Positions 53,855-58,895 are shown, counted from the first letter of the stretch. The stretch is DNA of 64,000 nt from an uncultured Pseudomonadota bacterium (GCA_902790415.1 CADARU010000004.1:397-64396), one strand, 5' to 3'. Notes: generated by a model from the letters alone, not told the origin. Program-made: numbers and translations.

Positions 53855-56603
53855 ATGAGTGGAATAATAAAAGTTCGCGGTGCGCGCGAAAACAATCTTA
53901 AAAATGTTGATTTAGACATACCAAAAAATAAGTTGGTGGTCTTTACTGGCGTGTCCGGTTCGGGAAAATCTTCGTTGGCATTTAATACTATTTATGCCGA
54001 AGGACAACGGCGTTATGTTGAATCGCTGTCCAGTTATGCACGTCAATTTTTAGATATGCAAAAAAAACCAGATGTTGATTTAATAGAAGGTTTGGCCCCG
54101 GCAATTTCAATCGAACAAAAAACAACGTCAAAAAACCCACGTTCTACGGTTGGAACAGTTACAGAAATTTACGATTATTTGCGATTGTTATGGGCACGTA
54201 TTGGGGTGCCTTATTCGCCGGTAACCGGTTTGCCAATTAAATCCCAGACCATTGCAGAAATGGTGGAAATGACAATGGATATTCCCGCTGGGGTGCGCGC
54301 GTATATTATGGCACCGTTGGTTCGGGACAGAAAAGGCGAATATAAAAAAGAATTGGCTTTCTTGGTCAAACAGGGATATCAACGCGTAATTGTTGATGGC
54401 GAACTGTACGATTTGTCCTATGTGCCGCCGTTGGATAAAAATAAAAAACATAATATTTTTGTCATAATCGATAGAATTCAAATGCCGGCATCTGATGCAT
54501 CGGATGAAGATAAGGAAGAATTTAAGTCGCGCGTGTATTCGTCTTTTGAGGGGGCTTTGCGACTTGTTCCGGGTTCGGTATTGTTACGCCGTTTGGATAC
54601 AAACGAAGATGTTTTATATTCGCAAAGTTATGCCTGTCCGGTTAGCGGTTTTGCCGTTCCAAAAATAGAACCCAGGTTATTTTCTTTTAATGCGCCAATC
54701 GGTGCGTGTCAGGGGTGCGATGGGTTAGGTGTGCAATTAAATATGTCGCCTGATTTGGTTGTTCCTGACCCGTCAAAATCGATATTAGATGGCGCAATCG
54801 CGCCATGGTCGCGTGGCGGTATGTTAAGTCAATTTGAACATTTGGTTGATGCACTGCATAAACAATTTAAAATTCCTTTGTCTAAACCTTGGCATACGTT
54901 AACCCAAGAACAGAAAGATTTGGTGCTGTATGGAACTGGGGACAAACCAATAAAAATAAATTGGAACGGATTTATTTATGAAAAACCTTTTGAAGGTGTG
55001 ATTCCAAATATTGAACGTCGTTGGCGCGAATCTGATTCCGAATCGGTCAGGGCGGAATTGGCAAAATACCAATCTGAAAAACCATGTCCGATGTGTCATG
55101 GAAAACGGTTGAATATTCAGGCATTGTGTATAAAAATAAATGGTGCCGATATTATTGATGTCTGTGATATGTCAATAGATGATTCTTATAATTGGTTTAT
55201 GGATTTGCCAAACCATTTGACACAAAAAGAAAGAGACATTGCAAAGGGGCGAGGCACAGCGTATTCGTCTTGCATCACAAATTGGCAGTGGTCTGTCCGG
55301 GGTATTGTATGTGTTGGATGAACCGTCAATTGGTCTGCATCAAAGTGATAATGACAAATTATTAGATACACTGAAAATGTTGCGTGATAAAGACAACAGT
55401 GTGATTGTTGTTGAACACGATGAAGATGCGATGCGCGCGGCCGATTTCTTGGTTGATATTGGTCGTGGGGCCGGTGTAAATGGTGGAAACATTATTGCCG
55501 CAGGTACCCCGGCGCAGGTTATAAAAAACAAAGATTCTTTGACGGGGCAATATTTATCTGGGAAAAAGAAAATATCTGTACCGAAACAGCGGCGCGCGGG
55601 TAATGGCGAATTTATAACTGTTCGTGGTGCACGTGAAAACAATCTGAAAAATATTGATGTAGAATTTCCGTTGGGTAAATTTATTGCGTTGACCGGGGTA
55701 TCTGGGTCTGGAAAGTCCACATTATTATTAGATACCTTGTATCCGGCACTGATGCGCGCGTTATATAATTCTAAAATAGAATGTGGGGCGCACGATATTA
55801 TAACCGGTATGGAAAATATTGACAAGGTTGTTGATATAGATCAATCGCCTATTGGGCGCAGTCCGCGCAGTAATCCGGCAACATATACAGGTGTATTTTC
55901 GAATATACGCGATTTCTTTGCCGAATTACCCGAAGCCAAGGCGCGCGGCTATGGCCCGGGGCGTTTTTCGTTTAATGTCAAAGGTGGGCGATGTGAAGCA
56001 TGCCAGGGCGATGGTCAGATAAAAATAGAAATGAATTTTTTGGCCGATGTTTATGTCCAATGTGATAAATGTCATGGTGCGCGTTATAACGAAGAAACCT
56101 TGGCGGTAAAATACAAAGGTAAATCTATTGCGGATGTTTTGGATATGACCGTTGATGAAGCATATCGTTTCTTTATAAATCATCCACAAATCAGTCGCAA
56201 GTTAGAATTGTTGAAACGTGTCGGTTTGGATTATATTAAGTTGGGACAAAGTTCTTTGGATTTATCCGGGGGCGAGGCGCAACGTATAAAACTGTCCAAA
56301 GAATTATCTGCGCGCAGTACCGGGCAAACATTATATATCTTGGATGAACCGACCACTGGTTTGCATTTCGAAGATATTAAACAACTGTTGGGTGTATTGC
56401 ACGAGTTGGTAGAGCAGGGAAATACCGTAATTGTTATTGAACATAATTTGGAAGTTATAAAAACCGCAGATTGGATTATTGACCTGGGGCCAAATGGTGG
56501 TGCCGGTGGTGGCCAGGTTGTTGCCGTTGGTACACCCGAGACGGTGGCAAAAAATCCTGATTCATTGACCGGGCAATATCTTAAGAAATACTTGGACAAA
56601 TAG
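53855..56603 (+). pseudogene. uvrA: Excinuclease ABC subunit UvrA, disrupted by an out-of-frame internal deletion near 55240 (or a sequence error)
   Basis: Two overlapping ORFs in different frames (53855..55321 and 55239..56603) together cover UvrA. The first ends ...[10 protein letters not shown] then out-of-frame residues. The second begins at ..[16 protein letters not shown]. About 30 residues normally lying between these points in UvrA (..ILKEI..RL.FL..VGL.YL.L.R...TLSG) are absent. Confidence 0.75.
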
Positions 56604-56649
56604 TTTTTATAAGTTATTATAAATAATGAAAAACATAAGGAGAAAAATA

Positions 56650-57153
56650 ATGTTTGGATTTGGTAAAAAGAAAAAAGTCGAATCAACCCAAGAAGTAAAA
56701 AACGATGCCTCAGAACCAAAAATGCCCAAGGGCATGAAGGAAACCGCCGAACGTATGATGAACGGTCAATTTGATATGAACGATATGTTGGCGCAATTAA
56801 AACAGATTAAAAAAATGAGCAATTTTAGTGGGCTGCTTAAAATGGTGCCGGGGATGTCTGGTGCGGTTTCGGCAATGAAGGAAAAAATCAAAGACGGCAG
56901 TGTTGATGCACAAATCAAAATATTGGAAGCAATGACTGCCGCCGAACGTGCCGACCCAGAAAAGATTTTTGCAAATGCCAAAGCCCGTATTGCACAAACC
57001 GCAGGGGTAACCGTTCGTGAAGTTGAACATATTATCAAACAATATTTAAAGATGAAACAACAAATGGCCTTGATTCAACGTATGGGCGGGATGGAGGCCG
57101 TAATGCAAAAAATGCAATCGGCCCAAGGCGGCGTTCCGGGTGCAAATAATTAA
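56650..57153 (+). CDS. Stand-alone SRP54 (Ffh) M-domain-like protein; no N or G domain
   Basis: ATG at 56650 follows SD AAGGAG. Ffh M-domain features are present: G.FD.ND.L.QL.Q.KKM......LKM.PGM, E.MT..ER..P..I....K.RIA...G..V.EV...IKQY..M, and a Met-rich tail. The upstream gene is uvrA, so no NG domain is adjacent. Confidence 0.65.
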   Translation: MFGFGKKKKVESTQEVKNDASEPKMPKGMKETAERMMNGQFDMNDMLAQLKQIKKMSNFSGLLKMVPGMSGAVSAMKEKIKDGSVDAQIKILEAMTAAERADPEKIFANAKARIAQTAGVTVREVEHIIKQYLKMKQQMALIQRMGGMEAVMQKMQSAQGGVPGANN

Positions 57154-57813
57154 ATGAAAATAACAAATAAAAAAATTGCAAAGCATAAATCAAGTGTCGC
57201 ATGGTTGCAACGCCAGGCATCAGATCCCTATGTTGCACGTGCGCATGCGGACGGTTATCGCGCACGTGCGGCATATAAATTGATTGAAATAAATGAACGT
57301 TATAAATTTTTGAAAAACGGTCAGACGGTTGTGGATTTGGGGGCGGCACCGGGTTCTTGGTCGCAATTTATTGCGCGGACTTTTCCAAAAACAAAAATTT
57401 TTGCGATGGATTTATTGGAAATTACACCAATAAATAATGTCGAATTTTACCAGGGTGATTTTACTTCTGATGATGCCTTGCGTTGGTTGGAAGAAAAATT
57501 GAATATGAAAAACGACAATGATGGTGTTGTTGATGTCGTGGTTTCTGATATGGCACCGAACACCGTTGGACATCAAAAGACCGACCATTTGCGCCAGATG
57601 GTTTTGTTGGAATATGCTTTTGATTTTGCGTGTCGCGCATTAAAAACGGGGGGGACATTTGTTGCAAAATCTTTTACCGGTGGAACAACAAACGAGTTGT
57701 TAAAACAAATAAAACAAAAATTCGAATCGGTGCATCATATAAAACCGGAATCTTCGCGCAAAGATTCGGTGGAAATGTTTATTGTTGCACTGGGGTACAA
57801 AAATAATATATAA
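57154..57813 (+). CDS. rlmE: 23S rRNA (uridine2552-2'-O)-methyltransferase RlmE (FtsJ)
   Basis: W...Q..D.YV..A...GYR.RAAYKL.EI......LK.G..VVDLGAAPG.WSQ and DVV.SDMAPN..G. The ATG directly abuts the stop of the previous gene. Confidence 0.9.
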   Translation: MKITNKKIAKHKSSVAWLQRQASDPYVARAHADGYRARAAYKLIEINERYKFLKNGQTVVDLGAAPGSWSQFIARTFPKTKIFAMDLLEITPINNVEFYQGDFTSDDALRWLEEKLNMKNDNDGVVDVVVSDMAPNTVGHQKTDHLRQMVLLEYAFDFACRALKTGGTFVAKSFTGGTTNELLKQIKQKFESVHHIKPESSRKDSVEMFIVALGYKNNI

Positions 57814-58404: not shown

Positions 58405-58435
58405 TATACCGCGCGATTATGCGCGGTATTTTTTG
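58405..58435 (+). terminator. Rho-independent terminator
   Basis: tataccgcgc-gattat-gcgcggtat followed by ttttt. Confidence 0.75.
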
Positions 58436-58606: not shown

Positions 58607-58642
58607 AACCGCCACTTTCGTGGCGGTTGTCGTTTTTTTTTT
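58607..58642. terminator. Terminator after tRNA-Pro (also abuts the stop of the minus-strand His-rich gene)
   Basis: aaccgccac-tttc-gtggcggtt followed by gtcgtttttttttt. Confidence 0.75.
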
Positions 58643-58895
58643 ACATAAATGCAGATATTAATATCGCGGTGGCAAGAAAGATATTACCTGCATTGTGATG
58701 ATGATGGTGGTGATGATGATGGTGTGCGGGCTTTACATGATGATGGTGTCCATGATGATTATTTTGGACAACCGTTACAACATGGGCCGGTTGATGATGC
58801 CCCATCCTGTGATTAGAAGGCGCGGCGTTTGCCGTTCCAACAGATAATACCGCAACCAGGACACTGGCAAGTACAAGTAGTTTTGTTTTTTTCAT
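58641..58895 (-). CDS. Small secreted/anchored histidine-rich protein
   Basis: Signal peptide MKKTKLLVLASVLVAVLSVGTANA, a His-rich core (HHGHHHHVKPAHHHHHHHHHH) and a hydrophobic C-terminus IFLATAILISAFM. Confidence 0.6.
   Translation of the reverse strand: MKKTKLLVLASVLVAVLSVGTANAAPSNHRMGHHQPAHVVTVVQNNHHGHHHHVKPAHHHHHHHHHHNAGNIFLATAILISAFM

Follow-up and report, generated by a model that had tools for sequence, protein, structure and literature searches.

The signal recognition particle (SRP), its receptor and its RNA are retained even in the minimal genomes of mycoplasmas. Reduced forms are known from organelles. The cpSRP54 of some plastids (plants and algae) and the mtFfh/mtFtsY of some protists belong to SRPs without an RNA (PMC8321541), and the same article proposes that MAP67 is a derivative of mtFfh in which the N and G domains were deleted. 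On the mitoribosome, mL105 is positioned at the tunnel exit, with its C-terminal helix extending into the tunnel toward the uL23 hairpin (PMC7326499), and it contacts density assigned to an Oxa1-type insertase (PMC9576764). E. coli suppressor strains and Streptococcus mutans can survive the loss of SRP in the laboratory, for example at a reduced rate of translation (PMC8299109, PMC8546722). A literature search retrieved no description of a bacterial Ffh consisting of the M domain only, or of SRP loss in the bacterial group studied here. Here we describe such a gene, termed M-only gene, at positions 56650-57153 (+) of a 64,000-nucleotide stretch of DNA from an uncultured Pseudomonadota bacterium (GCA_902790415.1 CADARU010000004.1:397-64396); this whole stretch is referred to as the window. 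The host belongs to a multi-genus clade of gut alphaproteobacteria with genomes of ~0.9 Mb that lost the N and G domains of Ffh, FtsY and the 4.5S RNA together. It is practically certain that ffh was truncated in place, that no NG part, no FtsY and no detectable 4.5S RNA occur anywhere in the clade, and that the M-only gene is retained under purifying selection.

The M-only gene and its origin from ffh

The open reading frame (ORF) comprises 167 codons and a TAA, without an internal stop. The only Pfam family above its cut-off in the 167-amino-acid (aa) product is SRP_SPB (PF02978), the M domain of SRP54/Ffh, which matches residues 40-139 over profile positions 1-91 of 91 (E 1.9e-22, 79.9 bits, cut-off 27). 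Among solved structures, the M domains of E. coli Ffh are nearest (5aka_5, E 2e-14, and 1dul_A, E 6e-14). This agrees with the original prediction, made from the DNA alone, of an Ffh M domain lacking N and G domains. The Shine-Dalgarno (SD) motif AAGGAG (56637..56642), read from the sequence, is located 7 nt 5' of the ATG, and the TAA (57151-57153) is directly followed by the ATG of rlmE at 57154 (TAAATG), so that the SD and the abutting stop that had been pointed out earlier are both confirmed. An alternative in-frame ATG occurs at 56626. The start at 56650 is favoured because of the position of the SD and because relatives carry a stop codon 1-2 codons before the conserved first residues.

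The product can be divided into four parts. Conservation among relatives defines an aromatic and polybasic N-terminal motif, MFGFGKKK (56650..56673), which is followed by a polar/acidic linker of variable sequence (residues 9-27, 56674..56730) that differs in length among species. The N-terminus, previously taken as a novel Lys-rich 25-aa extension, thus consists of a conserved motif of eight residues and a variable linker. The M-domain core (residues 28-152, 56731..57105) harbors the end of the GM-linker helix, h1, the finger loop, the former RNA-binding helix-turn-helix and the C-terminal helix, and precedes a variable Gly/Pro-rich C-terminal tail (residues 153-167, 57106..57150). In an AlphaFold2 model based on an alignment of 36 sequences (mean predicted local distance difference test score (pLDDT) 76.5, predicted template modelling score 0.65), residues 6-24 are disordered (pLDDT <50) and residues 27-159 form an all-helical domain, with a pLDDT of 80-97 at residues 41-150. 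A Foldseek comparison with the PDB placed the ribosome-bound E. coli Ffh M domain (5aka_5) at rank 1, with 36% identity and a target-normalised TM score of 0.70. Tetrahymena mL105 (6z1p_AT) was found at rank 20 (E 0.03, probability 1.00, 146 columns, 20% identity) and Toxoplasma mitoribosome chains at ranks 30-31. A phmmer search with the M-only protein at E<=0.001 did not retrieve mL105.

The gene order rodZ-uvrA-[M-only]-rlmE-...-rnhA-tkt was observed in 31 M-only loci. uvrA is visible in 29/31 and rlmE downstream in 29/31 of them, the misses being located at contig ends. In the same family, a full-length ffh directly follows uvrA in 7/7 loci, with rlmE downstream in 6/7. Since the full-length gene occupies the same uvrA-rlmE slot, the M-only gene is the orthologous ffh, from which ~300 codons were removed in place. 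The spacer between uvrA and the M-only gene in the window is 46 bp and leaves no space for NG remnants. In other families of the order, ffh does not adjoin uvrA. The suggestion that the gene is a remnant of ffh was therefore correct with respect to its origin but not with respect to decay, as the gene is conserved and under selection (see below). A UvrA tree from a quick search placed 27/28 M-only rows in one clade (SH-like approximate likelihood ratio test 98), which is sister to a genus with a full SRP.

The sequence of the ORF is also represented, at 99-100% identity, among contigs assembled from the RNA libraries of three studies (sheep gut and other gut metatranscriptomes). Three of these contigs extend over 56640-57140 (X1), 56679-57173 (X2) and 56658-57183 (X4), and a fourth contig (X3, 56384-56692) spans the end of uvrA and continues into the M-only ORF.

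Other short M-domain proteins, taken from a 50%-identity library, were rejected as further members of the group. Most of them start with the Met of LGMGD and have an intact RNA-binding motif, and therefore resemble truncated gene calls of normal ffh. A metagenomic protein of 138 aa (P0128) with 48% identity, which starts with MGLFGKKK, looks like a more distant M-only member and suggests that the family extends beyond the sampled genomes; a representative genome for this protein was not found. In many relatives (loci L035, L039, L041, L075, L076, L080), the M-only gene and rlmE are separated by 240-1400 bp that contain small ORFs of a repeated ~85-aa module. No such ORF lies between the two genes in the window, and tblastn gave no match elsewhere in the host genome, which rules out the module proteins as an obligatory partner of the M-only protein.

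Absence of the other SRP components

The host genome is an 894,842-bp assembly of 23 contigs that is 94.2% complete. Neither PF00448, the SRP GTPase domain common to Ffh and FtsY, nor the SRP RNA model RF00169 had a match in this genome, and PF02881 (N domain) had none at E<=1. Order-specific hidden Markov models (HMMs), based on sister-family proteins (15 Ffh, 12 FtsY), were run with filters off (--max) on all six-frame ORFs of at least 25 aa. The only match of the Ffh model was the M-only ORF (E 2.6e-38, model positions 314-446 of 455), which starts within the G-M linker region of Ffh; the other matches were P-loop noise with E values of at least 0.07 for the Ffh and at least 0.01 for the FtsY model. 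A 4.5S RNA model tuned to the family (R1, described below) retrieved nothing at E<=10, and a regular-expression scan of the host genome for the domain IV motif gave coding or chance matches only and no credible site. Thus, of the canonical features of Ffh/SRP54 and its partners, the N domain, the G domain, the SRP RNA and FtsY were all undetected in the host genome, and neither a full-length ffh nor a separate NG gene accompanies the M-only ORF. The genes for SecY, YidC, SecA, SecB and trigger factor are present. A crude gene call yielded 892 ORFs, 114 of which encode at least two and 54 at least four strongly hydrophobic segments. This indicates that the cell still has an ordinary set of polytopic membrane proteins to insert.

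The same pattern was found across the clade. A total of 121 genomes of the host family, the host genome included and mostly metagenome-assembled genomes (MAGs), were searched. Eight genera with 92 genomes carry the M-only form, namely g1 (78 and the host genome), g12 (2), g17 (1), g19 (5), g20 (1), g24 (2), g26 (1) and g27 (1); these include the single-contig genomes G102 and G070 and several with a completeness of 99-100%. PF00448 was detected at E<=1e-5 in 0/92 genomes of these genera, whereas it was present in 28/29 genomes of the ten other genera in the family. This leaves no NG-domain gene for the split SRP54 that had been considered, and supports the alternative of a free M-domain protein, which is conserved under purifying selection across the eight genera. 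PF02978 was found in 91/92 genomes, the exception being the 78%-complete g27 genome, and always in stop-to-stop frames of 150-273 aa. In the genera with a full SRP it is part of frames of ~430-570 aa, except in a few frameshifted assemblies. Five other families of the order harbor a full-length Ffh (440-489 aa) in 15/16 genomes, and in 14 of those 15 a second PF00448 match represents an FtsY candidate, with a stop-to-stop frame of ~290-320 aa in 13 genomes and 660 aa in G036.

The RNA required a separate model. RF00169 found the RNA in 13/16 sister-family genomes and in 0/24 genomes of the host genus. Within the host family, however, it gave no match at E<=0.01 in any of the 121 genomes, including those with a complete Ffh and FtsY. 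As it also misses genomes with a full SRP, a negative result with RF00169 is uninformative in this family, and the model was not used further to assess ffs. With lenient settings, a search of five family genomes with a full SRP gave weak matches, the best with 26 bits compared to a gathering score of 40. In two of these genomes (G045 and G067), the canonical domain IV sequence was recognized in a GC-rich, shortened RNA. These two RNAs were aligned with 13 sister-family RNAs as the seed of covariance model R1. R1 detected one RNA each in 27/29 genomes of the full-SRP genera at E<=1, in 24 of them at E<=1e-4, with two of the positive genomes being part of the seed alignment. In the 92 genomes of the M-only genera, R1 detected none. 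Taken together with the PF00448 counts, this shows that Ffh-NG, FtsY and ffs are missing from precisely the same set of searched genomes. The 4.5S RNAs of the full-SRP genera (e.g. at L088 and L089) are short and GC-rich, and the GC content of the host genome is ~40%. Weak R1 matches recur every 66 bp in G061 (C9:4881-5666) and G068 (C1:17123-18278; loci L117-L120), which looks like a repeat array of CRISPR-like spacing rather than SRP RNA.

In total, relatives of the M-only protein are encoded on 276 stretches. Among the best 80 of these loci, which come from species-representative genomes, many are recorded as Candidatus Enterousia sp. or are rumen and gut MAGs from goat, sheep, buffalo, yak or deer. 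In public annotation the proteins appear as 'hypothetical protein [Alphaproteobacteria bacterium]' or 'SRP54'. For Ca. Enterousia (order Rs-D84), genomes of ~0.75-1.0 Mb from farm-animal guts were described, and a term search of that article gave no match for SRP, Ffh, FtsY or 'signal recognition' (PMC12306168).

Selection, sequence change and proposed function

Selection was assessed by Nei-Gojobori estimates on 36 orthologues, with within-genus values from 276 pairs. The M core shows a ratio of nonsynonymous to synonymous differences per site (pN/pS) of 0.079 within the genus, with synonymous sites near saturation (pS 0.715), and contains 48 columns that are invariant among the 36 sequences. 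In the eight N-terminal codons no amino acid change occurs (pN 0, pS 0.49), whereas the linker and the C-terminal tail have pN/pS values of 0.64 and 0.57, respectively. The amino acid divergence of the M core was also related to that of UvrA as a yardstick, using pairs that are non-independent and a full-length set of only seven sequences. The ratio is 0.91 within the M-only clade (378 pairs), 1.45 among full-length family members (21 pairs) and 2.13 in comparisons across the two groups (196 pairs), which points to a burst of change along the stem branch when the NG part was lost, followed by a constraint that is tighter than on the M domain of full-length Ffh. Such a pattern suits a function that changed yet is still important. 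The best conserved regions are h1 and the finger loop, with a pairwise identity of 88-90% in the M-only group compared to 64% in the full-length group.

A comparison of 22 full-length with 36 M-only proteins revealed four core positions that are fixed differently. In the M-only proteins a Gly following the KKM motif is replaced by Ser, and an Ala in the helix before the SMT motif by Lys. The Ser of SMT, present in 22/22 full-length proteins, is an Ala in 32/36 M-only proteins (AMT), and this change also occurs in 72/80 further loci. The fourth position harbors an Arg in 22/22 full-length proteins and an Ala in 35/36 M-only proteins as well as in 80/80 further loci; in the window, the residue is Ala110 (56977..56979). 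In the alignment to 1dul_A, the lost Arg is the counterpart of the leading Arg in the E. coli RKRR motif. According to a review, Arg398, Arg401 and Glu386 recognize a flipped-out adenosine of SRP RNA (PMC5807370). From the numbering of the chain (shifted by one at the Glu), the lost residue is inferred to be E. coli Arg398. Its replacement by Ala would fit a loss of 4.5S RNA binding and would also be compatible with another nucleic-acid partner. Binding of 4.5S RNA, one of the roles proposed in the original prediction, is thus unlikely in view of this substitution and of the R1 results, while the other, signal-peptide binding, is plausible as a putative function.

The N-terminus is visible in 77 of the 80 further loci and reads MFGFGKKK (65), MFGFGRKK (11) or MFGFGKKA (1), and other genera start with MSWFSKKKK, MAWFSKKKK, MAWFGRSKK, MAFLGFGKKK, MFNFGKK or MFGLGKKK. 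The constant feature is a pair of aromatic or hydrophobic residues among small ones, followed by two to four Lys and then by an acidic/polar linker of 15-45 residues with free sequence. A degenerate aromatic-basic motif on a flexible tether would be expected for binding to anionic lipids or RNA rather than to a specific protein pocket. E. coli FtsY begins with a lipid-binding segment that is rich in lysine and contains aromatic residues, and short FtsY proteins of the sister families start with sequences that resemble the M-only motif, a resemblance and nothing further. Being only eight residues long, the motif could derive either from the opening codons of ffh (in family members MFDNLTRR...) or from LGMGD at the end of the G domain (MAFFT alignment).

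The explanation that accounts best for these data, and that we consider reasonably probable as a whole, is an ffh reduced in place whose M-domain groove binds nascent segments without a GTPase or an RNA. The methionine-rich groove would still bind the hydrophobic signal-anchor or transmembrane segments of nascent chains, and the protein would work without a GTPase cycle or RNA, as a stationed or tethered factor and not as a shuttling particle. It might reside where the tunnel leaves the ribosome, like mitochondrial mL105/MAP67, or might be attached to the membrane via the aromatic and poly-lysine N-terminus on its flexible linker. Either arrangement would keep translating ribosomes near SecYEG and YidC. 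We give about an even chance to the proposal that the M-only protein captures hydrophobic stretches of nascent chains while being resident at, or tethered to, the ribosome exit, the membrane or both. Slightly more tentatively, a lineage with ~890 genes and a normal Sec/YidC machinery may run its membrane-protein biogenesis by a stationed M domain alone, without a GTPase cycle or RNA of the SRP. Compensation via YidC was also considered and rejected: YidC is encoded in one copy in 119/121 family genomes, the proteins are of similar length, and neither a second paralogue nor a ribosome-binding tail (six M-only and six full-SRP genomes) was found. A prediction of complexes between the M-only protein and uL23, uL29 and uL24 gave a score of 0.00 with controls not run, and is not evidence either way.

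Several observations weigh against this interpretation. Binding to the ribosome, to the membrane and to signal peptides is in each case deduced from sequence. The ribosomal proteins uL23, uL29, uL24 and uL22 show no clade-specific insertion or extension in 10 M-only compared with 9-10 full-SRP genomes, and the C-terminal tail of YidC is unchanged, being short and basic in both groups. The absence calls are mainly based on MAGs, and the 0/92 count for the RNA comes from a family-wide R1 run with strict filters, in which only 35 first-look candidates per genome were scored. The RNA-library contigs demonstrate presence of the sequence rather than transcription, as such libraries can contain DNA. 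A single origin of the M-only form is not proved by the quick UvrA tree, in which the long-branch M-only genus g17 falls unplaced relative to the main clade; g17 shares the type of N-terminal motif and the truncation point but keeps the Arg. Finally, the residues aligned to E. coli Arg401 and to the conserved Glu are kept in the M-only proteins, and the former RNA-binding helix-turn-helix is still 77-81% identical in pairwise comparison, so an RNA partner for this region, such as rRNA, is possible. The main rival explanation builds on these conserved features and regards the protein as part of a ribonucleoprotein, whose helix-turn-helix binds either a divergent SRP RNA or 23S rRNA, in the latter case as a permanent ribosomal protein at the exit site. 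The failure of RF00169 on the divergent 4.5S RNA of this family (0/121) illustrates that standard models can miss such an RNA, and on the ribosome, mL105 occupies the place that the M domain takes in bacteria; the rRNA version would be compatible with an mL105-like ribosomal seat. However, R1 separates 27/29 full-SRP genomes from 0/92 M-only genomes, with nothing at E<=10 in the host genome, where the domain IV scan was without a credible site too, and the invariant Arg was replaced by Ala in 35/36 and 80/80 proteins. This makes the explanation unlikely.

No more probable is recruitment of the M domain to a task other than targeting, for example as a holdase for a few clients or in ribosome biogenesis together with rlmE. 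The tight coupling to rlmE (TAAATG), the burst of substitutions on the stem branch and the lack of a GTPase partner for cargo delivery would suit such a role. However, the rlmE neighbourhood is ancestral (6/7 full-length loci) and thus not specific to the M-only form, the parts that bind signals, h1 and the finger loop, are those conserved best, and their hydrophobic positions match those of E. coli Ffh. Decay into a functionless leftover of ffh, to which the loss of two of the three Ffh domains and of all partners might point, is highly improbable and already contradicted by the data: the gene is intact in 91/92 genomes of eight genera, its core has been maintained at a pN/pS of 0.079 with nearly saturated synonymous sites, the start motif is conserved, an SD site is present and the sequence occurs in the RNA libraries of three studies. 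The host assembly is fragmented into 23 contigs at 94% completeness, and the NG part of a split SRP54, FtsY or ffs might reside in unassembled or unbinned DNA. This is scarcely credible, as the same absence occurs in 92/92 genomes, including the two single-contig genomes and several that are 99-100% complete, and as all three parts are present in sister genera whose genomes were assembled likewise.

Flanking genes and comparison with known systems

Downstream of the M-only gene, rlmE (57154..57813, +) encodes an FtsJ-type 23S rRNA methyltransferase (PF01728, E 9e-58). The first terminator-like hairpin on the + strand (58406..58429; a 10-bp stem followed by a T run, identified by consensus match only) is located after the M-only, rlmE and DUF805 genes. 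Upstream, uvrA (53855..56603, +) had been identified correctly, but is itself disrupted in this assembly. Its domains are encoded in two overlapping frames, with a frame shift near 55240 and ~29 codons missing before the second ABC signature, whereas uvrA is a single ORF of ~2.9 kb in all 37 comparison loci. The break reflects either a fault of the assembly or a genuine pseudogene. With the C-terminal half of the UvrA of the window as query, 3/5 sister-family genomes (G025, G026, G027) gave no match at E<=1e-50, and nucleotide excision repair may have been lost in some families of the order. On the opposite strand (58641-58895, -), an ORF of 84 aa encodes an N-terminal hydrophobic segment and runs of more than 10 His in a row; its predicted product could be a secreted or membrane metal-binding peptide.

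The SRP is regarded as near-universal, and so are its receptor and RNA. In the clade described here the GTPases and the RNA were discarded and the signal-binding domain is guarded more tightly than before. As a consequence, completeness tools that use ffh and ftsY as markers will under-score M-only genomes. If the M domain alone supports targeting, it would reveal the indispensable part of the SRP and represent a minimal, one-domain factor for co-translational targeting. The M-only protein also offers a simple test of whether tethering without a GTP-controlled hand-over serves co-translational insertion. It would further be a living bacterial counterpart of the step that yielded mL105/MAP67, and a tractable bacterial model for the acquisition of a resident M-domain protein by mitochondrial ribosomes.

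The M-only protein shares the PF02978 domain and the helical fold with the M domain of bacterial Ffh (E. coli, 1DUL and 5AKA), and descends from ffh at the same locus. It differs in the lack of the N and G domains, in the replacement of the RNA-contacting Arg and the Ser of SMT, and in its new aromatic-polybasic N-terminus, and its genome is devoid of FtsY and 4.5S RNA. With MAP67/mL105 (Tetrahymena, 6Z1P chain AT; Polytomella) it has in common that an M domain occurs alone, without RNA or GTPase, and that this state is proposed to have arisen by deletion of the N and G domains. The origins are nevertheless independent, since synteny nests the M-only form in one alphaproteobacterial family, and the protein is closer to bacterial Ffh than to mL105 (36% compared to 20% identity). 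It is thus an analogue and not a member of the MAP67/mL105 group. Residence on the ribosome was shown for mL105, whereas the M-only protein is known here from its sequence and a structural model. Furthermore, MAP67 coexisted with mtFfh in some lineages, while the M-only clade has no other part of the SRP. The RNA-less SRPs of plastids and protists keep the NG domains and FtsY, both of which the M-only clade lost. Compared with laboratory strains that live without SRP, the clade shows neither a second YidC nor an extended YidC tail. Those strains are knock-outs or suppressors, whereas the M-only clade represents a natural, clade-wide loss in which the M domain was kept.

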